DNA of 53,441 bases, from IMG/VR virus record IMGVR_UViG_3300027872_000008, positions 1 through 53,441 of that record; one strand, written 5' to 3'. Below, piece by piece: positions 3,879 through 49,452 of the stretch. The translations under genes were made by a program, and so were the position numbers. The stretch is from a virus. Taxonomy: Duplodnaviria > Caudoviricetes. How positions within the stretch are numbered: the first letter of the stretch is position 1; every line of letters begins with the position of its first letter. Under the pieces are notes generated by a model. It searched no databases. It saw only the letters and a program-made list of their open reading frames with translations, and had not been told where the DNA came from.

Positions 3879-4163
3879 TTATAGCCGCTCCCGATCTGGC
3901 GGGCCAGGCATCCAGCCCTCCCCGGTGAGCTGGTCCACCGTCGCGCCCCGTCCCCAGAAGTGGATCCGCATCCTGCAGCGGAGGTCTCCGGGGATCTTGG
4001 CTGCCGCGTTGGCCAGGTGGTTGTTCACACCCCAGGCGGTGATGTCGAGCTTCTTCTGGATCGTGGCCCGGCTGTCCCCCCGGATGAGGAGCGCGGTCAC
4101 GATGTTCTCCATCGGCGTGAACGGCTCCAGGAGGGGGGCCCTACATCTCTGTTCCTTCGGCAT
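3879..4163 (-). CDS. LuxR/GerE-type HTH protein
   Basis: ENIVTALLIRGDSRATIQKKLDITAWGVNNHLANAAAKI matches the LuxR C-terminal HTH pattern. Confidence 0.6.
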   Translation of the reverse strand: MPKEQRCRAPLLEPFTPMENIVTALLIRGDSRATIQKKLDITAWGVNNHLANAAAKIPGDLRCRMRIHFWGRGATVDQLTGEGWMPGPPDRERL

Positions 4164-4539
4164 TGAGCATCCTCAGTGCTTCCTCGGTCGCCTGATCGAC
4201 GCTCAGAATCTGGCCTTCCTCACGCGCCTGGGCCATCAGCCATTCAACCCCGTTGTCGAGGGTCTCCGCAGTGAACTTCGCGTCCTCGGGCGTGGCCCGC
4301 CGCTTCTCCCCCGTCCCGGCGATCCCTTCGATCCGGTCGATGGCCGCCTCTATCGCGTCCTCCGCGTCGGGCTGCTCGAAGACGACAGCCTTCTTCAGCG
4401 GGGTGCCTCCGAAGGTCGTGTAGTTCTGGACGAAGATCCGCATCCGGCGCTCGCCCCACCAGAGCGAGATCGCGAAGAACGCCGCCGCCCACCCGACGAC
4501 GGCGAGCGCCAGGACACCGTTGGCCAGGTTCTCGCTCAC
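4141..4539 (-). CDS. Hypothetical membrane-anchored protein
   Basis: N-terminal TM segment (GVLALAVVGWAAAFFAISLWW); GTGA overlap with the terL stop. Confidence 0.65.
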   Translation of the reverse strand: MSENLANGVLALAVVGWAAAFFAISLWWGERRMRIFVQNYTTFGGTPLKKAVVFEQPDAEDAIEAAIDRIEGIAGTGEKRRATPEDAKFTAETLDNGVEWLMAQAREEGQILSVDQATEEALRMLNAEGTEM

Positions 4540-6065
4540 TGGAGCATCCCGTCCACGAGGAGGTCGTGATCCTCTTGCCAGGTGTTGCCCCTCCTGAGGG
4601 GCCCCGAGGTGTGCCTTCGCTTCTCCATCTCGTGCAGCAGAGTTGCCTTGCCGAAGGCTTTGACCTCCTGCTCTTTCCAGTTGCTCCGGGAGACCCCCGG
4701 CCGGGACGCGAGGGCGTAGCGGGTCTCGTCGTAGTCGTCGTCACCGCCGTCTCCGGTGATCGGATCCGCGTCCACCTTCAGAACGTCCTCGGGGTCGTCA
4801 GGGTTCGTCGTCATCGTCTCCAGCGAGTCGAAGCATCTCCGATTCCCCTCGTTGTCCATCATGTAGAAGTTGGGCTCGCCGTCGAACGGATCGCCGCCGT
4901 CTGCGTCGGGGATGATGCCCTTCCAGGCCACCTGCTCCCGGAAGTTCTTGAGCCCGGCGTAGCGAGCGATGTTGGCGTGGGTCAGGTAGATCTGGGCGTC
5001 CGCGAACCGCTCCTGGGTGGAGGGGGTCTCGTCGTCGTTGCGGGCCTTGTGGTGGGCCCAGCAGTCGTGCCCGGCGACGATGTAGCGGAGGTCTTGGACG
5101 TTGACGTGGTGGTTGATCGCGTCCGCGATCCGCCGGTCCGACATCAGGCGGCCCCGGAAGGTGTTGACCTTGTAGATCACGCCGTCCTCGTCCACCGCGT
5201 AGTGCCCGAAGACCCAGGGGTGGCTGAAGCCCCAGTCGAAGGATCCGAACTGGGTCCAGGTCGGGGGGATCCCGAAGGGCTCCAGGAAGTGGACGTCCTC
5301 GTCCAGCTCGTCCAGGCCCATGCCGAATCCGGCGTCCCAGTCCCCGTAGAGGAGCTGGCGTCGGAGCATATCGGGGAGGCTGAAGAGCTTCGCCATGTAG
5401 ACCGCGTCGTTGGCGTAGACCGGGTTGTCCGTCACGCGAGCTGGGATGAAGCGCCTGGACATCGTCGCCCTGAGGATCTGGCCGTCGAGGCCCGGCATCT
5501 CGTAGTCGTAACGGTAGATGTTCTCCCCACGTTTTCCACACTTGTTGATAAACCGCCGCTTGATCCACGGGTGGCCAGGCTTCCCTGGGTTGGCCGTGCC
5601 GCGCATCATCAGGATCACGTCGGGGTTCGGGCAGCGGTTCTCGGCCATGAGCATGACCCACACCCTCTCGTCCGCGACGTCGCCCACCTCATCGAATCCG
5701 ATGTAGGCCCACTCCTGGCCGTGGTAACGCTGGACCTCGTCCTTGGTCGAGCAGTAGCCGAACTGGAGGACGCCGCCTCCGGGGAAGGTCCAACGCTTGA
5801 GCCCGCCGTTCCAGTGGGGTGCGTTGGCCATCGACGGGAAGGCGAGCTGGCTGCGGTCGATCAGCTCCTGGACCTCGGGGAAGGTCTGCCGGAGGATGAG
5901 CGCCTTGTAGCGCGGGAGGGCCATCTGGGAGAGGGCCGCGAAGAGGATGGCGTCACTCTTCGCGCACCCCTTCGCGCCACCGTAGAGGACCTCTGTTTCG
6001 GTGCTGGCGCAGAACTGCCGTTGGGGCTCGCTGTTCGGAGCCCAGACTACACCCGGCTCATTCAC
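4536..6065 (-). CDS. terL: Terminase large subunit
   Basis: Walker A YGGAKGCAKS, Walker B YIGFDE, coupling motif GTANPG, RNase-H-like FDWG...D...D.YDETRY. Confidence 0.95.
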   Translation of the reverse strand: MNEPGVVWAPNSEPQRQFCASTETEVLYGGAKGCAKSDAILFAALSQMALPRYKALILRQTFPEVQELIDRSQLAFPSMANAPHWNGGLKRWTFPGGGVLQFGYCSTKDEVQRYHGQEWAYIGFDEVGDVADERVWVMLMAENRCPNPDVILMMRGTANPGKPGHPWIKRRFINKCGKRGENIYRYDYEMPGLDGQILRATMSRRFIPARVTDNPVYANDAVYMAKLFSLPDMLRRQLLYGDWDAGFGMGLDELDEDVHFLEPFGIPPTWTQFGSFDWGFSHPWVFGHYAVDEDGVIYKVNTFRGRLMSDRRIADAINHHVNVQDLRYIVAGHDCWAHHKARNDDETPSTQERFADAQIYLTHANIARYAGLKNFREQVAWKGIIPDADGGDPFDGEPNFYMMDNEGNRRCFDSLETMTTNPDDPEDVLKVDADPITGDGGDDDYDETRYALASRPGVSRSNWKEQEVKAFGKATLLHEMEKRRHTSGPLRRGNTWQEDHDLLVDGMLQ

Positions 6066-11376: not shown

Positions 11377-11384
11377 ACCGATGA

Positions 11385-11424
11385 CCTGGAGCGGAACGCT
11401 GGCCGGTTCGAGCCCGGCCCCAGG
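11385..11424 (+). ncRNA. T-loop mini-element 2
   Basis: CCTGG-AGCG gaa CGCT-GGCCGG TTCGAGC CCGGCC-CCAGG, a perfect three-way junction. Confidence 0.6.
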
Positions 11425-11446
11425 CTTCACCACCAAGGAGACGCAC

Positions 11447-12307
11447 ATGAGAGACCTGAACGTGCCCACCGAGATCACCGCCGCGATGGACGGCGGGGCC
11501 GCCCTGGCGGTGTCGATCTCCGGCGGCAAGGACTCCCAGGCCATGGCTCTGGCGCTCGTCGCCTGGGCCAAGCGGGAAGGCTACTGGGGCGTCAACGAGA
11601 TCTTCGCGGTCCACGCTGACCTGGGCCAGATGGAGTGGCAAGGCGAGTACGCCACCGAGCCCGTGGTGGTCGCCCAGGCGGCCGACCTGGGGCTGGAGCT
11701 GCACGTCGTCACGAGGACTGACGGCCGCGACCTCCTGGACCGGATCAAGGACCGCCGGGCCACCATGACCGAGAAGGGCCAGGACGGCCCCTTCTGGCCC
11801 AGCTCCTCGACCCGCTACTGCACCAGCGACCTGAAGCGCGACCCGATCAACAAGCTGCTGCGGACCTGGACCCACGTCATCAGCGCGGAGGGGATCCGGG
11901 CCGCCGAGTCCACGGCCAGGGCCAAGAAGCCCTGCTGGGCTCCCCGCAAGCGGATCCTCTCGAAGACCCGCGAGGCCCACACCTGGCACCCGATCCTGGA
12001 CTGGTCCGAGGACGATGTCTGGACCGCCATCGGGGGCCGCGACGGCCACCTGGTCCACCCGGCCTACGGCCTGGGGAACGAACGCCTCTCCTGCGCCATG
12101 TGCGTCTTCGGCTGCGACGGCGACCTGGTCAACGGAGCCCGGAACAACCCAGCCCTCTTCGAGGAGCTGCTCGACCTGGAGCGCGACAGCGGCTGGCGGT
12201 TCACCGTCAAGCGGAGCCTCGAAGAGGTGAAGCTCTGCCTCGACGGCGAAGCGCCCCTGGTCAACGGCCGGATCCAACTGCCGGTCCTCAACTCACAAGG
12301 AGCCTGA
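11447..12307 (+). CDS. PAPS-reductase-family (PP-loop) protein 1
   Basis: SISGGKDS, RYCTSDLK, GIRAAES, PILDW...DVW, HPAY.LG.ERLSCAMC. Confidence 0.9.
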   Translation: MRDLNVPTEITAAMDGGAALAVSISGGKDSQAMALALVAWAKREGYWGVNEIFAVHADLGQMEWQGEYATEPVVVAQAADLGLELHVVTRTDGRDLLDRIKDRRATMTEKGQDGPFWPSSSTRYCTSDLKRDPINKLLRTWTHVISAEGIRAAESTARAKKPCWAPRKRILSKTREAHTWHPILDWSEDDVWTAIGGRDGHLVHPAYGLGNERLSCAMCVFGCDGDLVNGARNNPALFEELLDLERDSGWRFTVKRSLEEVKLCLDGEAPLVNGRIQLPVLNSQGA

Positions 12308-20479: not shown

Positions 20480-20716
20480 ATGAGATGGATCACGACCAGC
20501 GAGGCCGCCGAGTGTACCGGCTTCACCCGTCAGTGGGTGGAGAAGCGGATCGCGGACGGCACCTTCAAGGCCGAGAAGAAAGGCACCCGAGTCCACGTCG
20601 ATGGGAACTCGGTGCAGGACTGGATGGTGGCCGAGATGGACCGGATCCAGGACCGCTGGAAATTCTACTATCACCACCTTCCCAACGGATACCATGGCAA
20701 ACCGAAAACAGACTAA
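20480..20716 (+). CDS. Excisionase-like HTH DNA-binding protein
   Basis: WITTSEAAECTGFTRQWVEKRIADGTFKAEKKG...V. Confidence 0.8.
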   Translation: MRWITTSEAAECTGFTRQWVEKRIADGTFKAEKKGTRVHVDGNSVQDWMVAEMDRIQDRWKFYYHHLPNGYHGKPKTD

Positions 20717-21773
20717 GAAGCGCACCCCCGAGGAGATCCGAGCCGAGTTCCTGGCCCGACGACGCAGTGGCCTGGGGGGCTCCGACGTGGGCGCGATCAT
20801 GGGGGTCGATCAGTACAAGGACGGGCTCGACATCTACCTCGACAAGGTGGACCCAGGCCCTGACTTCGACAACCCGGCGATGGAGCGCGGCCGATACCTG
20901 GAGCCCGTCGTCTCGAAGCTCTACGAGGTGACGTCTGGCCGCCGCCTGCAGGTGGGCAAGTTCCGACGCGACCAGAAGAACAAGTTCCTGATCGGGAGCC
21001 CCGACCGCATCATTAAGCCGACCGGCCGGAAGCCCTACGCGGCCGACGTCAGCAGCCCTGGGGTGCTGGAGATCAAGACGGCCAACCGCTTCGTCCTGAA
21101 GAAGATGAAGGAGCAGGGGCTGCCGAAGAACTACATCCTCCAGCTCCAGCATTACATGGGACTGAGTGGCACCACCTGGGGGGCCTTCGCGGTCCTCTGC
21201 CCTGACCCCTGGGAGTTCCTCACGTTCACCGTCGAGTTCGACCGGGAGCTGTACGACCGGGTGCGCGAGGTGCTCGAAGCCTTCTGGCGGGACCACGTCG
21301 AGGCCGAGGTGCCGCCGATCCCCAAGCCCATCGACTACGGGGACTCGAAGGAGGTCACGGCCGACACGGCCGTCACGATCTTCGACCCCGGCAGTAACGG
21401 CCTGGTCCAGTGGGAGAAGAGCGTGGACCTCTTCCGGGAGGCCAACGCGATGCTGGCTCTGGGCAAGGAGGCGAAGGAGTTCGCGAGGACCCAGATGATA
21501 GAGCAGATGGAGCTGGGCCACGGGATCTACGAGGGAGGTGGGGCCAGGGTCCACTACCAGGCCCAGGGTGGCCGGAAGACCTTCATGCAGCGGGAGCTGC
21601 GAGCGATGCAGCCGCTGGATCCCATCGCCATGGCCTCGCTCCTGGAGCAGGCCGGGCTGGACCTCGACACCATAGAGACACTGTTCGAGAACGCACGACT
21701 CAACCTGGACGACTTCCAGAAGATCGGGCAGCCGTTCGAGACCGTCAGAATGTACGACTCAAGGGAGGAGTAG
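20694..21773 (+). CDS. YqaJ-like viral recombination exonuclease
   Basis: RRSGLGGSDVGAIMG, GRYLE, GSPDR, LEIKT, YILQLQHYM. Confidence 0.92.
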   Translation: MANRKQTKKRTPEEIRAEFLARRRSGLGGSDVGAIMGVDQYKDGLDIYLDKVDPGPDFDNPAMERGRYLEPVVSKLYEVTSGRRLQVGKFRRDQKNKFLIGSPDRIIKPTGRKPYAADVSSPGVLEIKTANRFVLKKMKEQGLPKNYILQLQHYMGLSGTTWGAFAVLCPDPWEFLTFTVEFDRELYDRVREVLEAFWRDHVEAEVPPIPKPIDYGDSKEVTADTAVTIFDPGSNGLVQWEKSVDLFREANAMLALGKEAKEFARTQMIEQMELGHGIYEGGGARVHYQAQGGRKTFMQRELRAMQPLDPIAMASLLEQAGLDLDTIETLFENARLNLDDFQKIGQPFETVRMYDSREE

Positions 21774-22682: not shown

Positions 22683-23375
22683 GTGACGGATCTGTCACGC
22701 CGCACCTTCGAGACGTGGCCAGCGTGGACGGAGGACAGAACCTTCACGCCGGGCGAGGCCTGGCTGGACCTGGTGCGCCTGGGTGACGTCGGTGGTGTGC
22801 TGCCCGTCATCTCCTACACGGAGCGGTGGGGCTGGCAGAACGCAGAGGTGGCCGACTTCTTCACGACCCTGGAGAGACGCGGCCACCTCCGACCCTACGA
22901 CAAGACGACCTGGGCGCTCACCTACCAGGTCCAGGATCCAGGGCTCACGGAGGACTTCGAGCTGGTCTGGAAGATCTACCCGAAGCGGGTGGCCAAGCAG
23001 AAGGGATACCACGCCTACGCAGCCACGAGGAAGGGCCGGAACGGCGACCCGCCGGTCAAGGCCCGCCTCCTCTTCGAGGCCACCGAGCGGTACGCCTTCG
23101 CCCGCCAGGGCGAGGAGGCTGAGTTCACCCTGCACCCGGCCACGTTCTTCGGGCCCGATGAGCGGTGGAAGGAGAAGCACAAACCGAAGACCAACAGCAA
23201 AGCGAAGGGGCAGAAGGGATGGAGCAGACCGACGAGCAGGGACCTGACGAAGACGGCCCCCCAGGCTGGCACGGGAACGAGCCGTGGCCGGAAGAAGAGG
23301 ACGCCGGATCAGGGAGTGAAGCCGAAGAACCCCCGGAAGAAGAAGCCGACCAAGGACCCACTGTCGGATCTGTAA
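22683..23375 (+). CDS. Phage replication initiator-like protein
   Basis: EAWLDL N-terminus; FELVWKIYPKRVAK...HPATFFGPDERW C-terminal domain. Confidence 0.7.
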   Translation: MTDLSRRTFETWPAWTEDRTFTPGEAWLDLVRLGDVGGVLPVISYTERWGWQNAEVADFFTTLERRGHLRPYDKTTWALTYQVQDPGLTEDFELVWKIYPKRVAKQKGYHAYAATRKGRNGDPPVKARLLFEATERYAFARQGEEAEFTLHPATFFGPDERWKEKHKPKTNSKAKGQKGWSRPTSRDLTKTAPQAGTGTSRGRKKRTPDQGVKPKNPRKKKPTKDPLSDL

Positions 23376-24361
23376 TCAGGGTCTCCACGCCCGGCCAGCT
23401 CTCGCCAGAGCAGGAGCTGTCGCTCACCAAGTACCGGGAGGAGCGCCACCTCGCAGAGCAGGACACGCCGCCCTACGTCGATGCCCTCGGGTACGAGCTA
23501 CACGCCCTCAACCAGGCGAAGCTGGACTGGACGTCCGACATGGTGCTCACCACCCCCTACGCAGCCTGGAACAGCGTGTGCGGGGACGAGGGAGGGCTCA
23601 CGGGCCTGGCCAGGGGCTGGCACGTCATGGTGGCCGGGAACACCGGCATGGGGAAGAGCCTGGTGGCAATCAACCTCGCAGCTCACGCGGTGAAGAAGGG
23701 CGAGAAGGTCGGCATCATCAGCCTGGAGATGAGCAAGCCCCAGTTGATGACCCGCTACCTGGCCATCCACACCGGCAAGGCGATCAGGAACCTGGAGTGG
23801 GGCCCACGCTACGACGAGCCCACCGCCCTCGAAGCGAACGAGATGGTAGAGGAGAACCACGAGGAGAACGGTGGGATCCTGATCACGAACGATCGGCGCG
23901 TCTCGAACCTCGAAGACATCCTGGCGTCCATGGCCTACCTCCACGAGTACCGTGGGGTGACCGCCTTCGTGACCGACTACCTCCAGCTCGCCTGGACCGG
24001 CAACGCTGAGAAGATGAGCGACCGGATCACCGAGGTCTCCCACGCCATCCAGGGCACGGCCGCCGACCTCGGGGTGGTGTCTGTCGGGGTGAGCCAGTTC
24101 AACCGGGCAACGTCGGGAGCTTCGGAGAAGCCCAAGGTCCAGGGCATGATGGGCGGCAGCGCCCTGGAGAACGACAGCGACCAGGTGATGCTGCTCGACC
24201 ACACGAGCTACAAGGAGACGGGCCGGTCCCAGGCGATGATCAAGCTCCTGGTCGCGAAGAACCGGCACGGGAGCTGCGGGGAGATCCCGCTGATGTGGGA
24301 CTACACGACGCTGCGAGCCACGCAGACCGACGCCCGCGAGTTCGAGCGGGACGATGACTGA
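23219..24361 (+). CDS. DnaB-like replicative helicase (ATPase domain)
   Basis: GNTGMGKS, SLEMS, DYLQL, SQFNR, LENDSD, KNRHG. Confidence 0.9.
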   Translation: MEQTDEQGPDEDGPPGWHGNEPWPEEEDAGSGSEAEEPPEEEADQGPTVGSVIRVSTPGQLSPEQELSLTKYREERHLAEQDTPPYVDALGYELHALNQAKLDWTSDMVLTTPYAAWNSVCGDEGGLTGLARGWHVMVAGNTGMGKSLVAINLAAHAVKKGEKVGIISLEMSKPQLMTRYLAIHTGKAIRNLEWGPRYDEPTALEANEMVEENHEENGGILITNDRRVSNLEDILASMAYLHEYRGVTAFVTDYLQLAWTGNAEKMSDRITEVSHAIQGTAADLGVVSVGVSQFNRATSGASEKPKVQGMMGGSALENDSDQVMLLDHTSYKETGRSQAMIKLLVAKNRHGSCGEIPLMWDYTTLRATQTDAREFERDDD

Positions 24362-26668: not shown

Positions 26669-27178
26669 TCACGTCCTTACCTCGAAGTGCGGGAGGTCGT
26701 GAAACGTCTGGTCCTCAAGATCGCCACGGTCGCTATCCCAGTCACCACCCCACCGGATGTCGATGCCCATCTCCTCGGCCGTGCCGGAGACGAAGCCGCC
26801 GAAGTAGTACCACCTCGCCACCTCCCTGACGTACCCCTCGACCAGGGCCATGACCTCGGCCTCCTGTTCGTCTGTGAGCTGCCCGGCCACGGTCTCTATA
26901 CGGGACAGCAGCTTCGACGCCTGGGGCCAGGAGAGGGGGTCAGGGGCTGCGTCAACGGCCTCTGCGAGGTCACGCACACCCTCCCCGGTGATGTGCTTCG
27001 AGTTCATCGTCTTGCTGACGCCCTTGGCGACGTTCTTCTCCTGCTGCTCGACGGTGCGCTCGCCCTCCAGGATGGTGTTCGGGAAGCCCTCGCCCACCCT
27101 CTTCATCAGGCGCTGCAGATCCTCGTGCGCCGTGGCCAGCCGGGCCAGGCTCGTCGCCCCGTAGTTGTTGCCAGCCAT
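26669..27178 (-). CDS. Endolysin, M15-family L-Ala-D-Glu peptidase
   Basis: EGERTVEQQ...SKH...AVD...RWGGDW...DLPHFE. Confidence 0.9.
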   Translation of the reverse strand: MAGNNYGATSLARLATAHEDLQRLMKRVGEGFPNTILEGERTVEQQEKNVAKGVSKTMNSKHITGEGVRDLAEAVDAAPDPLSWPQASKLLSRIETVAGQLTDEQEAEVMALVEGYVREVARWYYFGGFVSGTAEEMGIDIRWGGDWDSDRGDLEDQTFHDLPHFEVRT

Positions 27179-30100
27179 CAGCGCCCCTGGTTGAGCTGTC
27201 GGATCAGGGCCGCCCGGTTCACGTCGTCAATCCTGGGGGTGCGCCTGGGTGGGATCCCGCTGTTGACCACGGCCGCCGCGTTGACCCGGCTCATGCCGCC
27301 ATCGCGGAACTGCCGGATCACTTCCCGGCTCGTGAGGCCATGGCTGTTGATCGCCTTCAGTGCGATCTGGTGGGCGTCCTCGAAGACCCTGGCCCGAGAC
27401 CGCTCCGACCTGTGGAAGGCCTCCGTCAGCTCCTCGTCCGTGACGGTGCCCGAGCGGTTGGACACGCGGTTGAGGATCCGGTTCGCATCGTTCAGCCTGC
27501 CGTCCAGCTCCGTGGTGCGGAAGCGCAGGGCCTGACGGACGTCGGTCTTCTGCAGCCGGTGCCCCGTGAGGACGGCCAGGAACTCCGTCTTCGTGTCGAA
27601 CTCCTGGCCGAAGGCGTTGGTCTCCTTGTTGATCCCGGCCGCGATCCGCCTGGCACTGGCGAAGGTGCCGGGCTCTATGGCACCCCACAGGTGGTCGAGG
27701 ATGGCGAAGGCCTGGTCCACCTTGTGGTCCTCCGGGTTGAAGACCTGGCCGCCGGAACGCTTCAGGTTGCTGTTGACCTCCGCGAGCTTCCCGAACAGGA
27801 TCTCCTCTCCGATGAACGGAGCAGCGGCCTGGAGGGTCGCCTCCAGGAGAGCCTCCTCCCAGTCGCCCTCGCCCGAGAACAGCCGCCGGAGTGGGTCACG
27901 CAGGTAGCTGTACGGATCCGTGTACGAGAGGTCGATGATCGAATAGACCCCGTCCACTGGCGGGCTGGTGTAGATCAGCGAGCTGTTCTCCTGCCACGGT
28001 GCCAGGAAGGGACGCAGATCCTCGTCCTGCTGGCGGTCCACACCGTTCTTGAAGCGGGACGCAGCCGACGCCGCGTAGACGCCACCGGCCGCGACGGTGA
28101 GCCCGGCCAGCCTGGTGGCCCCGATCTTACGGATCTCCGGGTTGGGGGATCGGGCCTCCTTGATCGCCAGGCTGACGGTGTGCCAGCCGGTGCGGAACAC
28201 CTCGGCCGGGAACGAGACGAACGAGCCCATCAGGATGTTCTTCCGCAGCGCCTGGACCCCGGAGGAGATCATGCCGTAGTTCGGGTAGGTGTTCCTCACG
28301 ATCCACGCTGCGGTCTCCTCGACCTCGGCCTCGGTGGCGTTGGGCAGCGCCTTCCTGTACCGGGCGAACTCGTTCTCGAACGCGACGATCTTCCAGAGGT
28401 CGTCCTCTGCCCGGTAGATGGCGGTGGCTCCCTTGACGAACCCCCTCATTCCCTTGGAGAGCAGGCCCTCGTCGGGGCTGATGTTGTCCAGCCCCTGCCT
28501 GGAGGCGTCCCTCATCACGGCCGCCAGCTCTCCGGCGTGGGCGCTGCTGTCCACGACCCCGAGCATCTGGATCCGCTTGTAGTACGACTCCCACGGGCTC
28601 TCGCCCGGCAGCAGGCCATCGCGGAGCCGGAGCCTGCGCTCCTGCTGCGCCCTCTGCGCGGGGCTCTGGCCCCTGGCGCGGGCCTCGACTTCGATGCCGA
28701 CCTTCCCAGCGAGGAACCGCTTGGTCAGCCGCCCTCCCCTGCTGATGCCGGTGCTGGCGTTCACGGCCTGGATCGCCCGTCCGAAGTGGTTCAGCCGCCA
28801 GTGCCCGTTGGCCGTCGCGAAGCCAGCGTTGCCGATGAGGTTCCTGACGTGGGTCATCACGGACATGACCGTCTTGTCGAGCTTCACGACCGCGTTCGCT
28901 TTGAGGTAGGCGCTGTAGAGCCAGCCCTTCGCGCCAGGCAGATCGAACTCACGCTTGAAGGCGTCCGCGATCTCCTGGGTCGTGTGGAGCCCAGCGAGCG
29001 GCTCCATCACCTTCGAGCCCTTGGCCGAGATGGGTACGGTGAAGGAGCCGTTGGCGTTGGTCGTCGCGTTGACGAAGAAGAGGCCGTTGGGGTTGTCGGG
29101 TGTCGCCTTCAGGCTGTTCCTGACCTCGGTGAGGAAGCCGTGGCTGGAGAGGTCGCGGGCCATCTGCGACACGCTCCTGGCGTAGCGCAGCCTGACGTCG
29201 GTGTGCTCGCCCATCAGCGCACGGATGGAGGGGTGGATGTCCTTCCGCTTGATCAGCATCGACAGGTCCATGGCCCCGAGGGTGCCGCCGGTCAGGAACT
29301 GGAGCGGGCTGTCCACCTGCTTGTTCAGGATCTTTTCCATGAGCCCCTGGATCTCGTCGTCGCTGAGATCTGGGCGCTCCTTTCGCAGCCAGCTCCTGGC
29401 CCTGTTGACGATGCGCTCTGGGACGTTTTCCAGGATCCAGGAGGGGGTGTCGAACACCTTGTAGGAGCGGCTGAGATAGACGCCCAGGTTGTCTGCGATC
29501 ACGGCCGCCAGGTCCCCTTCGACCATGCCCGACTGGATCATCTGCTGGGAGTAGCCGTCCACCCTCTCGCGCATCTGCCTGACGATGGGCCGGAGCGGCT
29601 CCGGGATCCTGGACAGCGGGATCTGGCCACTCAGCGCAGCGTTGAGCCGACGCTTCTGGGAGGAGTTCATGTTGGGTGTGCCGTAGGCGTCCCGCAGGGC
29701 GTCATCGAACCGGCGCAGCGTGAACGTCATGTCCGTGATCTGAGCGCCGAACCACCCCTGGGACTTCAGCAGCAGCCGCCAGGCACGGTGGGGCAGATCG
29801 CCAGGAGCGGTGAAGTTTCTCTGGAGGAAGGCAGCCGCCCGCTTCCCGGCTGCAGTGAGGTCAACCCGCACAGCTCCGGCCTTCGCACCGAGCCGTCCCC
29901 CGGCCAGCTTGCCGAGGTCGAAGAAGCCTCCGCGCCCGTTCGCCTGGGTGCCCTCGGGAGGCTTCGGTGGTATGGGATCCGTGACTCGCCTGGGGATTAC
30001 CTCGGGGGCACGGGATGGGCCTTCAGCGGGCGGGGTGTGCTTGACCTCCACCTCGGGGTTGTGGAGGTCCCCCTGGCGGGCCCGAGCTGGTGCTAGACTT

Positions 30101-32889
30101 TCTTGCCCAGCCGCCGCAGCGCCTCGTCCAGACCGACCTGCACCTGCTGCATTTCGATCTCGTCCCAGTCCACCCTCCCCAGTGCCGGATCGACGTTGCC
30201 TGGCGGCCCCTGCCTCTGGCTCGCCGGGGAAAAGGAGTCGGCCGTCTGGGATCTCTCCCCCGCTGTCGATGAGCCGGGGGTCCTGTCCTTTCGGAACGTC
30301 ATTGGAGTACCTCTGATGAGAGCGGAAGAGGCCTGACTCGACCGCTTCCTGGTACATCGCAGTGGGAGCGTCTCCCACCTCATCTAAAATATACGCCTCT
30401 GGGATGTATTTGTCAGTCCTTTTGAACCTCATGTAGGCCCGCCGCGCTGCCTCGAAGGGCGGGATCTCGTTCAGCACGATGTGGACGTCGTAGCCAGCCG
30501 CCCTCAATTTCCGGGCTGCGTCTATGACGTGCGACCGATCCTTGCCGATCATCGGCATGACGATGTTGTCACCGCGCTCTACCGCGTCGGCCAGCATCCG
30601 GTTGTGGGCGAGGATGGACGACTCCCGATGGACCGTGCCCGCTGCCCGACCGCCGTCGTGCTCCCCGATGCCCTTCTTCCACTCGTCTGCGTCTATCGTC
30701 AGTGCGCGGATCTCCCTCGCGAGCGGGCCCGAGAGCGTGGACTTCCCGGAGGCTGAGTTGCCGGTGACCATGTAGATCTGCCGAGCCTGCCTCACCGGAC
30801 CCGCGAACCAGGCACCGGCCTTCACCCGATCCGCTACCTCGAAGAAGCCCGCGTGTTCTTCGGACGTCAGCCTCGTGTCGAGCGGGTCGTGGGTCTCCGC
30901 GACCCGCTGCGGATCCCAGTCTGGCCCTCCAGGCTGCCTGGTGTCGCCCGTGGAGTGCAGGCTCGTGGTGTCGGTCGGATCGCCAGGCTGCGGACGTAGA
31001 CGTGCTTCGATGATGTCTGGGTCGTTGTCGATGATCCGCTGAAGAGTCGGGAGATCCTCGGCCGCCCCGGCCGCGTCGTGCCTCGCCTGGTTCTCGGGGG
31101 ACAGCACCCTGGGCCGTCTCGTGAGCCCTGTCTCTGGATCGACGTCGAGCCTGGGGCCGATGAAGCCTGGACCTGGCTGGTCTGCCGCCTCGGCCGCCGC
31201 CTCGGCCACCGCCCGCTCCTCCTGGTCCAGGCGAGCCCCCTCCCTGGTCAGGGCCTCCGCGAGCGTCTGATCGTGCAGGGGTGGGCCCCCCTCCCCTACC
31301 GTGGACCTCCGCACCCGGAACGCCTCGGGGCCCGTCCTGGTGCCTCCCTTGGCCGTTGTGGGATCCCTGAAGGCCGGGTCCAGGTCTCCAGCTTTCCTGA
31401 TCCTGCCAGCGAGGGGTGTCGCGCCGATCAGTGCGCTGGCCACGATCCCGAAGACGAGGTTGTTGGCTCGCTCCTGGGAGTCCTCGGCCTGGAACGCGAG
31501 ATCGAACGGGATCCCCTCGACAGCGGCCTGCAATATCCTGGTCCCACGAGACACTGGGACGTTCGGGTTGAACGACTGCAGGAACGTCCGCACCCTCGAA
31601 CCCCTGGCCGCCAGGCCCGCCGTCCCGGAGACACCGATGCCGGTCAGCCTGATCACGGCTCCGGCCCCCGCGAGGAAGCCCACGCCGCCGCCGACCTTCT
31701 CAATCAGGGTCCGATCCAGGGCCCCGAACAGGTCGTTGACGGTCAGGGCCGTGGGCTCCAGGCCGAACACGCCCCTGACCGCGTTGGTGGCCTGGTCGAT
31801 CATATCGGAGACGTGGCTCTCGAAGCGCCCGGCGGTCACCCCGTCGAGGAACCCACGGCTGGCAGAGATCCCGACCCTCAACGCCACCGGGATCTTCTCG
31901 AAGTCCTCCTGCAGCACCTGCCGTTGTTTCTCTATGTTGGCCGCCATTCGCTCCATGCGGGTGACGGGTGTCCTGGCTGCGTCCTCGGTGACGGGTGGCT
32001 CTGCGACGGGGACAGGCCTCGGGGGCTGTCCGACGTTGACGTCAGGCTGGGCGAAGACGACCGTCTCAGCTATCTCCTCCGGGGGGCGCTCACTGATCCC
32101 CATCTCTCGCAACGCCAATTCACTGCCAAAGTTCAGAGCCTCCCCGAGTGACATCCCCTCCTGGACGTGGGGGATCCTGGTGGGCTGCAGGCCCAGCTCC
32201 CTGTCGAACGCTTGGAGATCCGGGGTTACACCAGGCTGCCCCGGTATCGGATCCAGTGCCCCCCTCCGGTCGCGGTCGAAGAAACCCCGCAGCTCCCCGA
32301 AGAGGTTGCGCTCCGCGCTGGGACGACCCACGCCCGTTGGATCCACCGGCTGGACCTCGCCCATCGGACGCACCACGCGACCATCCACCACCTCCGGGCC
32401 GAGGTCCAGCCGCACGGCGTCCTCGCCACCCTCGACGCCCTGGAGCAGCGGTGGCACCTCCGGCTCTGGCTCCTCCACGGCCGGTGTCTCCCGTCGAGGC
32501 ATCCCGATCCGACCCTCGTCCTGCCGGAACAGAGGCTGCTGGGCGAGACCCTCTGGGCCTGCCGCTCTCTCTCGGATCGCGGCACCAGCTCGCTGGAAGA
32601 TGTTCGGGGGGTCTGCCTCCACCACCGGCTCCGGCCTGGCCCCTCGACGTTCAGCGAGGACCCGCGAACGGTCGAACGCCCTCTGCTGTCTTTCGGCCGC
32701 CGCGACTTCGGGGTCCAGGGTGACGAGGGTCTGCGCTTCCAGCCGGTCCTCTTCCCGCTGCCTACGCGATGCCCTCAGGGATTCGAGTGGATCGTCCGCT
32801 TGGGCTGCAGCGTCACGCGCTTCCCGCGCCAGGCGCAGCTCTTCGAGTGGATCGTCCTGGAGCTGGCGGTTGGTCTGGCCGGTGGCCAT
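27178..32889 (-). CDS. Giant internal virion/DNA-ejection polyvalent protein with Zeta-toxin-like kinase domain
   Basis: 1903 aa, last structural gene. Internal GNSASGKS...DADEWKK...HRESS...GYDV domain at ~30320-30790. Confidence 0.75.
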   Translation of the reverse strand: MATGQTNRQLQDDPLEELRLAREARDAAAQADDPLESLRASRRQREEDRLEAQTLVTLDPEVAAAERQQRAFDRSRVLAERRGARPEPVVEADPPNIFQRAGAAIRERAAGPEGLAQQPLFRQDEGRIGMPRRETPAVEEPEPEVPPLLQGVEGGEDAVRLDLGPEVVDGRVVRPMGEVQPVDPTGVGRPSAERNLFGELRGFFDRDRRGALDPIPGQPGVTPDLQAFDRELGLQPTRIPHVQEGMSLGEALNFGSELALREMGISERPPEEIAETVVFAQPDVNVGQPPRPVPVAEPPVTEDAARTPVTRMERMAANIEKQRQVLQEDFEKIPVALRVGISASRGFLDGVTAGRFESHVSDMIDQATNAVRGVFGLEPTALTVNDLFGALDRTLIEKVGGGVGFLAGAGAVIRLTGIGVSGTAGLAARGSRVRTFLQSFNPNVPVSRGTRILQAAVEGIPFDLAFQAEDSQERANNLVFGIVASALIGATPLAGRIRKAGDLDPAFRDPTTAKGGTRTGPEAFRVRRSTVGEGGPPLHDQTLAEALTREGARLDQEERAVAEAAAEAADQPGPGFIGPRLDVDPETGLTRRPRVLSPENQARHDAAGAAEDLPTLQRIIDNDPDIIEARLRPQPGDPTDTTSLHSTGDTRQPGGPDWDPQRVAETHDPLDTRLTSEEHAGFFEVADRVKAGAWFAGPVRQARQIYMVTGNSASGKSTLSGPLAREIRALTIDADEWKKGIGEHDGGRAAGTVHRESSILAHNRMLADAVERGDNIVMPMIGKDRSHVIDAARKLRAAGYDVHIVLNEIPPFEAARRAYMRFKRTDKYIPEAYILDEVGDAPTAMYQEAVESGLFRSHQRYSNDVPKGQDPRLIDSGGEIPDGRLLFPGEPEAGAARQRRSGTGEGGLGRDRNAAGAGRSGRGAAAAGQESLAPARARQGDLHNPEVEVKHTPPAEGPSRAPEVIPRRVTDPIPPKPPEGTQANGRGGFFDLGKLAGGRLGAKAGAVRVDLTAAGKRAAAFLQRNFTAPGDLPHRAWRLLLKSQGWFGAQITDMTFTLRRFDDALRDAYGTPNMNSSQKRRLNAALSGQIPLSRIPEPLRPIVRQMRERVDGYSQQMIQSGMVEGDLAAVIADNLGVYLSRSYKVFDTPSWILENVPERIVNRARSWLRKERPDLSDDEIQGLMEKILNKQVDSPLQFLTGGTLGAMDLSMLIKRKDIHPSIRALMGEHTDVRLRYARSVSQMARDLSSHGFLTEVRNSLKATPDNPNGLFFVNATTNANGSFTVPISAKGSKVMEPLAGLHTTQEIADAFKREFDLPGAKGWLYSAYLKANAVVKLDKTVMSVMTHVRNLIGNAGFATANGHWRLNHFGRAIQAVNASTGISRGGRLTKRFLAGKVGIEVEARARGQSPAQRAQQERRLRLRDGLLPGESPWESYYKRIQMLGVVDSSAHAGELAAVMRDASRQGLDNISPDEGLLSKGMRGFVKGATAIYRAEDDLWKIVAFENEFARYRKALPNATEAEVEETAAWIVRNTYPNYGMISSGVQALRKNILMGSFVSFPAEVFRTGWHTVSLAIKEARSPNPEIRKIGATRLAGLTVAAGGVYAASAASRFKNGVDRQQDEDLRPFLAPWQENSSLIYTSPPVDGVYSIIDLSYTDPYSYLRDPLRRLFSGEGDWEEALLEATLQAAAPFIGEEILFGKLAEVNSNLKRSGGQVFNPEDHKVDQAFAILDHLWGAIEPGTFASARRIAAGINKETNAFGQEFDTKTEFLAVLTGHRLQKTDVRQALRFRTTELDGRLNDANRILNRVSNRSGTVTDEELTEAFHRSERSRARVFEDAHQIALKAINSHGLTSREVIRQFRDGGMSRVNAAAVVNSGIPPRRTPRIDDVNRAALIRQLNQGR
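30093..30302 (-). CDS. Nested out-of-frame ORF (69 aa) downstream of the Zeta domain
   Basis: AGAGGT-N6-ATG; C-terminal amphipathic helix VDWDEIEMQQVQVGLDEALRRLGKKV. Confidence 0.4.
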   Translation of the reverse strand: MTFRKDRTPGSSTAGERSQTADSFSPASQRQGPPGNVDPALGRVDWDEIEMQQVQVGLDEALRRLGKKV

Positions 32890-47082: not shown

Positions 47083-49452
47083 CTATTGGCCCGCCGCTGC
47101 TGGTGCTTCAGCAACGCCCTCGGGGTTCCTCGTAGCGGAACCGGAAGGCACTGCCGCCTCTGATGTGGGTGCCCCTTCAGGCGACCCTGCTGCGCCCCCA
47201 CCATCGGGGCTGCTGTTGCCGCTGAACTGATTGTCGCCGCCCTCGGGATCGGCCTCGGCCGCCTGGAGCGTCTTCAGCATGATGTTCGTGATGTGCATCT
47301 GTCGGTGCGCCTCGAACCCTTTTTGGATCATCGGATCCAGCTCCAGGAACTCCGGCGACGACATCAGCTCTTCGTGGGAGAGCAGGTGGACCAGATCGTT
47401 GTACCACTCGAAGACCGGGATCTCCTGGAAGGGCACACCTTGCAGCAGCTTCCCGTTCTCCTGGTCGGCCGTGATCCGGTGGATGCCACCGAACTTCCCA
47501 GCTCGCCCGAGGTGAGGGAACTGACTCAGCTCGAAGAACGTGGCCACCGCCGCAGGTGTTCCCGGAGGACCGAAGAGGCCCCCGGCGTAGAGCGCGGTGA
47601 TGTTCTTCTGCTTCTCGCCACGGCCCTCGGGGAGCATCGACTCTATGTCGGCCACGACGTTCACAGAGCCCTCCTCGAACATCTCCGGCTGGACGAGGAT
47701 GGTCCTCGCCACGTTGTCGTTGCCAGCGTAGGAGAGGATCTCCTCCTCGTCGTAGATCACCGGGAAGAGCTGCTCCCAGTCCTCGGCCATACGAGCGAAC
47801 TCCTCTGCAGCTCGACGCATCGTCGGGCCCAGGAAGCGGTCGGAGTTGAAGCGCAGCTCCTTGACCAGCTCGCCGCTGGCATCCTCTGTCGGGGCGTTTC
47901 CCTCGGTCCCGGCCAGGTTGCCCATCTCGTCAATCTGCTGGGCCATGAACTCCAGGACCTTGTAGGCGTCGTTCGAGAGCGAAGGCGGTGCGACCCACTC
48001 GAACGGGGGCACCCGCTCCCGCCGGTTGACGCTGATCGCCAGGCCTGGGCGGTTCGTGATCTGGGTCTCTTCGATGCCGCTCTGAGAGTCGATGATCTTG
48101 AGCGGGTTGGCGCACAGGTTGGCGTGTTCGATGATCAGCGCAGCGACCTTGTTGAAGACGCGCTGCGGGAAGTTCATGGCCTCCTGGGGAGTCGAGCCGC
48201 CAGCCGGTCGGCCGGGCAGGCTCACGAACTCGAAGCGCCGGATCGGGCTCGTGTGGCCGTACCTCACGGGCCTGGTGCTGTCGTGGAGCACCTCCTTCCG
48301 GGTGCAGATCAGAAGCCTGCCGCCGGGCTCGTCCTTGGTCTCCTGCATCCGAGCGAACTTCGCTGGCTTGTGCCAGAGCGTGAACACCTCGTGGGTCACC
48401 TCGGGGATGGCGACGTCCTGGCTGAAGTCGGACCCGAAGACGGACGGATCCGCCGCTCCGAAGTAGCCGCTCCCGTAGGTCAGCCGTTCCTGGATCCCGG
48501 TGGTGCTGCCGCCCTCGGCCGTGCTCTGCTCGCCACCCGTGATCTTGATGCCGTAGGCCTCGAAGATCTCGGCCGACGTCAGGAAGCTCCGCACCATGTG
48601 CCAGGACTTTTCGTGCCACGGAGCTGGGCCCCACTCGCCCCTCACCTGGACGGGGTTGAGGACCTCGACTGCCAGGTCCCCCTTCCTCTCGGAGTGGGCG
48701 TCCTCCGGCCCGAGCGGCTGGCCGGTCTCATCGAACTGGAGCTGGCCCTCCTGGTTGAAGCCGACGTTGCCGCCGTTCTCCTGGGCTCGTAGGACGGCCT
48801 CCTGCTGCTCCGGCTCGAAGCCCTCCATGTCGGCCTCGTCGGCCTGCCCCTCGAAGTCGATGAAGTCGCCCTTGGAGAGGTCGATGGTGCTCTGCAAGTA
48901 GACGGTCCCGGCCGGGATGATCCAGGCGCTCGCCCGGTCCCACACCTCCTGCATCTTCACCTCGCGCCACTTCGTCTTGAAGATCACGTCCTGGGTGGCC
49001 GCCAGCATCGCGTCGATGCGGTCGGGGCCTGGGACGAAGGTGATGATCGGGGGGTTCTCGTTCATCCGGGCGTGGGTGATGATGAACCAGGAGAGGAGCT
49101 TGTTGAAGACCGGCCGCTGCCTCCACTTCTTCTCCTCGGCCGTCATCCACTGCGTCACGTCCACGAACCGGCCGATCCTCGGATTGAAGACCGCCCACTG
49201 CTGCCCTGCCAGCATCCTGATGTTCTCTTCGATCTGCCGATCTCGCCTGCGGAGGACGTCGTCCTGGGTGTCCCAGTTGTAGACGGCCCAGGCGATGCGG
49301 TCGCTGTCTCGCTCGTCCTCTTCGCCGTGGCCGTCGTTCCCATCGGCCCTGATGTCGGGGATCTCATCGAAGTCGAACGGCTTGCCTCCTGGGCCGATGC
49401 TGGTCGAGGAGGAGCCGGTCTTCCCTCCGAAGCGCGATGACGCGAGAGCCAT
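47083..49452 (-). CDS. Portal protein (P22-like)
   Basis: GQQW, RPVFNKL, NPP, Q.VFNK; size and position. Confidence 0.85.
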   Translation of the reverse strand: MALASSRFGGKTGSSSTSIGPGGKPFDFDEIPDIRADGNDGHGEEDERDSDRIAWAVYNWDTQDDVLRRRDRQIEENIRMLAGQQWAVFNPRIGRFVDVTQWMTAEEKKWRQRPVFNKLLSWFIITHARMNENPPIITFVPGPDRIDAMLAATQDVIFKTKWREVKMQEVWDRASAWIIPAGTVYLQSTIDLSKGDFIDFEGQADEADMEGFEPEQQEAVLRAQENGGNVGFNQEGQLQFDETGQPLGPEDAHSERKGDLAVEVLNPVQVRGEWGPAPWHEKSWHMVRSFLTSAEIFEAYGIKITGGEQSTAEGGSTTGIQERLTYGSGYFGAADPSVFGSDFSQDVAIPEVTHEVFTLWHKPAKFARMQETKDEPGGRLLICTRKEVLHDSTRPVRYGHTSPIRRFEFVSLPGRPAGGSTPQEAMNFPQRVFNKVAALIIEHANLCANPLKIIDSQSGIEETQITNRPGLAISVNRRERVPPFEWVAPPSLSNDAYKVLEFMAQQIDEMGNLAGTEGNAPTEDASGELVKELRFNSDRFLGPTMRRAAEEFARMAEDWEQLFPVIYDEEEILSYAGNDNVARTILVQPEMFEEGSVNVVADIESMLPEGRGEKQKNITALYAGGLFGPPGTPAAVATFFELSQFPHLGRAGKFGGIHRITADQENGKLLQGVPFQEIPVFEWYNDLVHLLSHEELMSSPEFLELDPMIQKGFEAHRQMHITNIMLKTLQAAEADPEGGDNQFSGNSSPDGGGAAGSPEGAPTSEAAVPSGSATRNPEGVAEAPAAAGQ

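Follow-up and report, generated by a model that had tools for sequence, protein, structure and literature searches.

A +1-frame gene overprinted behind the Zeta-like kinase domain of a giant phage virion protein, a candidate inhibitor of that domain

The viral contig analysed here (IMG/VR record IMGVR_UViG_3300027872_000008; "the window" denotes the whole stretch of 53,441 bp) has a GC content of 65% and carries its late genes on the minus strand. One of them, an open reading frame (ORF) of 1903 aa at 27178-32889 on the minus strand, encodes a giant virion protein with an internal Zeta-like kinase domain. Directly behind that domain a second, small frame is open inside the same gene, and the first-pass annotation, made from the letters alone, had proposed it as a hidden gene for a built-in antitoxin. 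The locus raises two questions: is the nested frame a gene at all, and, if so, what would its product do to the kinase domain beside it? As to the first, the nested frame is very probably a real gene. As to the second, the evidence leans, with less assurance, towards an overprinted protein that has its own start and inhibits the adjacent Zeta-like domain.

The nested ORF (30093-30302, minus strand, as are all features below unless stated otherwise) consists of 69 codons and a TAG in the +1 frame of the main ORF. It lies wholly inside the giant gene and its start adjoins the end of the Zeta-like domain. The signals reported at first sight are all in place: (i) a Shine-Dalgarno (SD)-like AGAGGT at 30310-30315, followed by the spacer ACTCCA, 6 nt upstream of the start codon; (ii) the ATG itself at 30302-30300, created by the main-frame Asn codon AAT (30301-30303); (iii) the TAG at 30095-30093, created by a main-frame CTA (30094-30096). 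Two segments can be distinguished in the second half of the nested protein, namely residues 33-50 (30153-30206), with the motif PPGN.DP.LG.VD.DE.E, and residues 46-64 (30111-30167), which form an amphipathic helix in the AlphaFold2 model and whose C-terminal part varies among about four types. The overlapping main frame encodes at 30070-30204 a linker of about aa 896-940, rich in R, G and A as first described, and variable and indel-rich among 12 homologues. An upstream ATG at 30383, which would give a 96-aa version, was rejected as the start, as a relative has a stop two codons after that ATG.

Openness by itself says little in DNA of this kind. Among the 1902 codons of the giant gene's +1 frame are 64 stops, and stretches of 182, 126, 96 and 84 codons are open, the nested ORF sitting in the one of 96 codons; by openness alone it is within chance for the giant gene. 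It is the comparative evidence, that is the conserved start and stop, the selection and the orphan copies, that lifts it above that level.

Seven distinct copies of the nested frame are available at the DNA level. They come from the window, from one related phage of 85% nucleotide identity that is present twice (L002-L005, here L004), from metagenome contigs of 72-78% identity (L008, and L007/L009 as one copy), and from two short contigs, L011 and L012, which contribute a common cassette 2 and one cassette 1 each. The first-pass annotation had named the openness of the frame in homologues as a check on its proposal: all 7 distinct copies have an uninterrupted frame of 63-70 codons whose ATG and TAG stand at aligned positions. 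The main frame is likewise open in all 11 homologues of the giant protein (1127-1903 aa, 60-89% identity).

Both ends of the nested ORF depend on main-frame codons that the giant gene otherwise hardly uses. The codon AAT accounts for 2 of the 65 Asn codons in the window gene (2/65, 2/71, 3/68 and 3/64 in four genes), and the start-site AAT is the sole AAT common to the relatives; the second AAT of the window gene (30151-30153) creates the nested Met51. At the nested stop stands CTA, used for 2 of 159 Leu codons in the window gene, and the main-frame codon at this aligned position is CTA or GTA in 7/7 copies (GTA making up 6/121 Val codons). The nested start and stop are maintained against main-frame codon bias. 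An AGAGG element is found in 5/7 distinct copies, with ACGGTA in both orphan cassette-1 copies, and its conservation is the weaker point because AGG is a common Arg codon here (59/194 in the giant gene).

Composition and substitution patterns lead to the same place. Over 30279-30129 the GC content at the third codon position (GC3) of the main frame drops to 0.40-0.54, and GC at positions 1, 2 and 3 of the nested frame is 0.68-0.80, 0.40-0.54 and 0.82-0.88, respectively; this pattern, with the second position lowest, is that of real genes in this 65% GC genome. Before about 30215 the window and L004 differ by 1 amino-acid change in the main frame and 5 in the nested one. There follows a block of 61 nt that is 100% identical, in a relative with 85% overall nucleotide identity, and beyond 30152 nucleotide divergence is strong, the main frame turns into unrelated sequence with indels and the replacements in the nested protein are conservative. 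By the Nei-Gojobori method the ratio of nonsynonymous to synonymous differences per site (pN/pS) is below 1 for the main frame of the N-terminal half in 11/12 pairs; in the tail it is below 1 for the nested frame in 11/12 pairs and above 1 for the main frame in 10/12. Near 30210 both the coding signature and the purifying selection leave the main frame for the nested one. A scan of synonymous sites, a low-power test for this region, gave a codon identity of 0.88-0.93 against a gene mean of 0.75 (standard deviation 0.10), high though not the top window of the gene.

The same division is seen in an alignment of 22 nested sequences. Twelve of the 18 motif positions are invariant and 2 more are at least 90% conserved; the N-terminal half is variable in sequence and poorly conserved, with length shifts of 25-35 aa; the helix occurs in about four sequence types that appear in mosaic combinations.

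The nested frame also persists away from the giant gene. L011 (760-1500) and L012 (820-1560) each carry two tandem orphan cassettes composed of the 3' part of the Zeta domain (only its last 30-45 or so residues), the nested ORF and a conserved stretch downstream. The two contigs, from different assemblies, have a common downstream junction, where 118 nt are 98% identical. Two stops in L011 and a frameshift in L012 interrupt the main frame of cassette 1, whose nested ORF is intact and conservatively diverged; cassette 2 keeps only a 139-aa main-frame fragment. Upstream of the L011 cassettes lies a GerE/LuxR-type ORF with 54% identity to a 94-aa ORF of the window (3879-4163, minus strand), which is located two genes after the terminase large subunit with a 132-aa ORF between; this places the cassette array in the late region of a related phage genome. 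The window and each of two related viral records hold a single nested copy. The cassettes may be expressed immunity genes directed against other phages' kinases, or silent recombination donors.

Searches with a profile of the seven nested proteins recovered 19 stand-alone clusters of 52-106 aa, called as genes on contigs of 500-8348 bp. Three of these proteins start at a Met of the former main frame, joined by a frameshift to the nested frame, and the 106-aa form (P0021) has the motif and helix duplicated in tandem. Against 1.84 billion representative proteins the profile found only 4 small proteins and one weak repeat protein; the latter (P0040, 365 aa, E 5.5e-4), built of about ten APTRGR[IV]SWTE[LF]E repeats, was judged a chance likeness to the motif. 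Other collections added little: blastn of 2.5 kb against the phage collection gave no match, and tblastn against it returned distant Zeta domains only (cyanophage PSS2, Bacteroides phages, Haloarcula viruses) at 25-29% identity, a level uninformative on the nested frame. No relative was found in the genome contigs scanned with the giant protein and with the nested profile, and none in the viral contigs scanned beyond the one phage present twice.

Three further proteins (P0047, P0056 and P0059; 936-937 aa) correspond to the C-terminal half of the giant protein, begin at an internal Met (MPPKAPEG...) and lie on contigs of 3.8-6.4 kb. One of these contigs measures 4220 bp, as does the contig of the nested protein P0024. 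The C-terminal-half proteins therefore hint at variants in which the giant gene is split where the nested gene lies. Among 8000 scored candidates no shorter homologues representing split forms were found.

The domain in front of the nested gene is a Zeta-like P-loop kinase domain of about aa 690-862 (30304-30822), identified by Pfam, an AlphaFold2 model and folds in the PDB. Pfam family PF06414 (Zeta_toxin) matches aa 702-835 of the main ORF with 37.8 bits (cut-off 22.3), and the Walker A sequence GNSASGKST is encoded at 30736-30762. The model of aa 650-895 has a predicted local distance difference test score (pLDDT) of 86.7. Its best solved folds in Foldseek are zeta (1gvn/3q8x), PezT (2p5t) and AvrRxo1 (4z8v), with template modelling (TM) scores of 0.57-0.64, and the top match is 1gvn_B (E 2.7e-9, TM 0.63); phmmer with the Zeta domain alone gave no match in the PDB. 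Residues K716 and D735 align with K46 and D67 of zeta, the Walker A Lys and the catalytic Asp (numbering counted by hand), and both are invariant in 12 sequences. All three closest folds, zeta, PezT and AvrRxo1, were crystallised with a small protein partner. In the distant homologues P0015-P0020, giants of 2790-3320 aa, a Zeta_toxin domain is also internal and shows 31-39% identity over the domain; in P0015 it is followed by a MuF_C domain, which ties this protein class to MuF-type head proteins.

That the host gene encodes a virion protein, as first proposed, agrees with two PHROG matches: the Zeta part (aa 692-861) corresponds to PHROG 16619, minor head protein, and aa 1489-1764 to PHROG 22602, virion structural protein (E 1.2e-30). 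The gene lies in the late structural module that runs from portal to endolysin.

Does the nested protein bind this kinase domain? Modelled by itself with AlphaFold2 from the 22 nested sequences, it shows a single helix at residues 46-64 and a disordered N-terminal half (mean pLDDT 57.5, predicted TM score 0.25), so that the amphipathic helix of the first-pass annotation reappears in a model of low confidence. The epsilon and PezA antitoxins have a helical-bundle fold; no bundle of that type was seen in this low-confidence model, which contains the one helix only. When the Zeta domain (aa 650-895, alignment of 12 rows) and the nested protein (22 rows) were modelled together with unpaired alignments, the complex prediction that had been suggested as a check, the interaction score from aligned errors (ipSAE) was 0.92 (0.92, 0.91 and 0.92 in the individual runs), compared with at most 0.01 in 3 controls. 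Contacts are shared between the runs to at least 66%.

In the model, contacts with the domain are confined to nested residues 32-69, the interface being listed as 32-33, 35-41 and 44-62. On the Zeta side it includes S712 of the P-loop, A734 beside D735, and the invariant residues A749, G751, H754, S758, H762, R764, M780, G782, K783, H787, Y828-P830 and Y833. The nested helix is predicted to dock on two Zeta helices, aa 763-771 and 787-798 (30496-30603), and the lowest-error contacts join Zeta residues 766/767/770/771/791/794/795/797/798 with nested residues 54-62. The nested tail is thus predicted with high confidence to clamp the active-site face of the Zeta domain. The interface positions 763, 767, 771, 793, 794 and 797 on the two helices are the most variable of the domain, with column entropies of 2.1-2.6 at 767, 771, 794 and 797 against a non-interface mean of 0.47. 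Within aa 690-861 the two most variable positions, and 6 of the top 8, fall in the interface, an enrichment that is suggestive. A conserved plug over the active-site face combined with a variable docking helix would correspond to cognate toxin/immunity logic.

The proposed mechanism can be put together as follows. Translation of the 69-aa protein would begin at its own ATG, behind its own SD-like site, on the late transcript that carries the giant gene. Its N-terminal 32 or so residues would act as a disordered spacer, their sequence dictated by the main frame that encodes the end of the Zeta domain. The C-terminal 37 residues would be the functional part, overlapping a main-frame linker that appears to tolerate almost any sequence, and would bind the Zeta-like domain encoded directly upstream, with the invariant PPGN.DP.LG.VD.DE.E segment over the conserved active-site face and the variable amphipathic helix on the two surface helices that carry the most variable residues of the domain. 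As an inhibitor of the antitoxin or immunity type it would silence the kinase throughout synthesis and assembly of the virion protein and so protect the producing cell. Because the binding would be non-covalent, unfolding of the virion protein for ejection could release the inhibitor. The two functions may have been captured as a pair, as first proposed, or the small gene may have arisen by overprinting in place.

Several observations weigh against this reading. The residues E116, T118 and R120, which belong to the substrate site of canonical zeta, an enzyme that phosphorylates UDP-GlcNAc, align with P779, I781 and K783 (counted by hand), so that phosphorylation of UDP-GlcNAc and toxicity are no more than possible for the domain. 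Neither epsilon nor PezA nor any entry of Pfam or the PDB resembles the nested protein, whose best PDB profile matches (E 0.38) are unrelated proteins. For the antitoxin originally put forward, binding to the active-site face of the Zeta domain is predicted, and no relation to epsilon or PezA is detectable. Among the sequencing runs listed with this sequence, none was of RNA. The isolated peptide model is poor, as its scores indicate, and even in the complex the partner reaches a pLDDT of only 57-61. The binding rests on one model, and its score mark, reached in calibration by 58/80 solved complexes and 2/110 mismatched pairs, is to be read with those counts as only rough, given the custom unpaired alignments; likeness to solved zeta/antitoxin complexes may have inflated the score as well. 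With a preset cut, 6 of the 15 most variable positions fall in the interface, which comprises 40 of 172 positions (p = 0.1). The DNA evidence comes from 4 lineages with the full gene and from 2 contigs with cassettes, the SD is weaker in both cassette-1 copies, and the pN/pS values are confounded by the frame overlap and come from 12 non-independent pairs. Finally, in a homologue of 38% identity (L010) the +1 frame is open at this place and its peptide is not significantly similar (hhalign probability 0.8%). That frame (L010:2082-2255) is an ORF of 57 codons with an ATG of its own 5 codons upstream, GGAGG 11 nt before it, and an acidic, helical tail.

If the nested protein is real, it could still serve something other than inhibition: as a chaperone or adaptor bound to the Zeta domain or elsewhere on the virion protein it might act in assembly, folding, packaging or targeting, or it might have an unrelated regulatory role. 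The evidence for a real gene is neutral on function, and the gene is located within the late structural module. The solved partner of AvrRxo1, deposited as ORF2 of the complex, is described as both chaperone and antitoxin. Such a role is nevertheless rated as unlikely, as the predicted interface covers the P-loop and the invariant cleft residues, not a peripheral surface, and as toxin/immunity pairs, unlike assembly chaperones, typically have variable docking surfaces and orphan copies.

The main rival concerns the start. A programmed +1 (or -2) frameshift between 30300 and 30206 would make the nested tail part of a truncated product of about 930 aa, consisting of the N-terminus, the Zeta domain and an autoinhibitory or other tail, which would be produced beside the full-length protein; the tail would then not be an independent protein. 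Selection does switch frame inside the identical 61-nt block, which contains, by eye, GGG_G runs and GCC_AGG_C, the nested N-terminal half shows poor conservation and a varying length, and the predicted binding fits a tail acting in cis equally well. The invariant nested residues, however, explain the conservation of the block and of its candidate slip sites just as well, and no canonical slippery site with a stimulator is evident. Under frameshifting there would be no need for the ATG, kept in all copies by a codon that makes up 3% of Asn codons. The orphan cassettes keep the ORF and its start without the upstream main frame, three cassette-type proteins have gained an upstream Met, and the motif was never found in frame with a Zeta domain among the 1.84 billion representatives. 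Programmed frameshifting is accordingly given a small chance, distinctly below an even one.

That the frame is merely a chance opening in GC-rich DNA, its conservation due to an RNA or DNA element (e.g. a recombination site) or to the main-frame protein alone, is highly improbable, for although long spurious ORFs are common here (+1 runs to 182 codons, an antisense ORF of 918 aa), synonymous identity is raised and other runs yield contigs interrupted at 30160-30290, as a repeat would cause, the nested amino acids are kept after 30152 where the nucleotides diverge and the main frame is scrambled, rare codons hold the start and stop, the nested frame stays intact where the main frame decays, and the GC3 signature follows it. 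The hidden overprinted gene with its own start, as anticipated in the first-pass annotation, is in this respect conserved, selected and unbroken where its host frame is not.

Returning to the inhibitor, a wider reading can be built on it: a polymorphic toxin/immunity pair on a virion-delivered protein, together with orphan inhibitor arrays that neutralise rivals. The active kinase would be injected after its inhibitor has been stripped off as the protein unfolds for ejection; the orphan cassettes of related phages, of other specificity types and placed near packaging genes, would act against the incoming kinases of rivals; and the variable helix and variable Zeta surface would record an arms race between phages, or between phage and host, fought through an overlapping gene. 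As a joint statement this is advanced only tentatively and is doubtful as a whole.

As for the remaining features of the window, the terminase large subunit lies at 4536-6065 and the portal at 47083-49452, followed by a series of unannotated ORFs, and the endolysin (26669-27178) adjoins the 1903-aa ORF; all three are on the minus strand. A match of the main protein (aa 1164-1190) to the Rv0078B-antitoxin family of Pfam was dismissed as noise (16.4 bits, cut-off 27.1). The 918-aa antisense ORF opposite the giant gene (27340-30096, plus strand) fails the GC3 coding filter and is a shadow ORF of GC-rich DNA. A plus-strand block holds a PAPS-reductase-like gene (11381-12307), a RecE-like exonuclease (20601-21773) and a DnaB-like helicase/primase (23165-24361). 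Contigs from four other sequencing runs, including one run in which the identical strain is otherwise present, end or start at 30160-30290; these assembly breaks fit a repeated or hypervariable element and allow no finer reading than repeat or microdiversity.

Should the inhibitor reading hold, the locus would be a natural example of a gene for a proteic inhibitor placed out of frame inside the gene of its target domain. Such joint carriage of a toxin and its antidote would be unusual for a virus. Recombination could never part the two, and standard gene callers would miss such pairs. The arrangement would make clear how a kinase that might harm its own phage can be incorporated in a virion protein, the Zeta family would gain a new minimal type of partner made of an extended motif and one helix, and the immunity-like cassettes in phage genomes would represent a layer of phage-phage competition. 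Full-text searches, in a literature with few subscription journals, found neither an antitoxin or immunity gene that lies out of frame within the toxin gene it belongs to, nor such a partner for a virion protein with a Zeta domain.

Among known systems, epsilon/zeta and PezA/PezT likewise join a P-loop kinase of the Zeta fold with a small binding protein, the binding being predicted here. The differences relate to (i) the partner, which here has about 37 functional residues forming an extended motif and one helix and no sequence relation to epsilon or PezA; (ii) gene order, the partner being encoded downstream and out of frame in the same ORF instead of by an upstream gene of the operon; (iii) the kinase, which is internal to a 1903-aa virion protein; (iv) a DNA-binding or regulator part, which is absent here. 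AvrRxo1-ORF1/ORF2 is similar in that a delivered Zeta-like kinase has been solved with a small partner (4z8v and others), a pairing of the kind predicted here. AvrRxo1, however, is a type III effector of a plant pathogen and its partner is encoded by a separate adjacent gene, with no overlap of frames.

For the gene arrangement, the closest likeness is Rz1 within Rz of phage lambda, an embedded same-strand gene in the +1 frame with its own start, whose product and that of Rz are spanin subunits for lysis. As there, a small gene lies wholly inside a larger one on the same strand, in the +1 frame and with its own start, and the two products are predicted to work together. The nested ORF has the marks of an overprinted gene, that is, it is wholly embedded, its own start is conserved and purifying selection acts on the embedded frame. 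In contrast to Rz1, its product is predicted to inhibit a domain of the host-frame protein.

Polymorphic toxin/immunity systems, including MuF toxins, resemble the locus in an immunity-like gene at the end of the toxin domain, in variable contact surfaces, and in tandem orphan cassettes with fragments of the toxin gene (two in each of 2 contigs). Those systems have a swapped C-terminal toxin module and a separate downstream immunity ORF; here the domain lies inside the protein with 60-90% identity among homologues, and the immunity-like gene is written over the main frame. MuF toxins of phages are described in PMC5576092, where a term search finds the word "zeta" 0 times.

Zeta toxins pair with antitoxins of unrelated folds, according to PMC10532202. 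EzeT of E. coli is described in PMC10532202 and PMC4826407 as a Zeta toxin that contains a cis-acting antitoxin itself, and, as would be the case at this locus, the toxin and antitoxin functions then lie within the bounds of one gene. The EzeT antitoxin forms the N-terminal domain of one in-frame polypeptide with the toxin, whereas the candidate described here would be a separate polypeptide from the +1 frame, encoded after the domain. The pair would combine known kinds: the Zeta toxin/antitoxin, the overprinted phage gene and polymorphic toxin/immunity logic.

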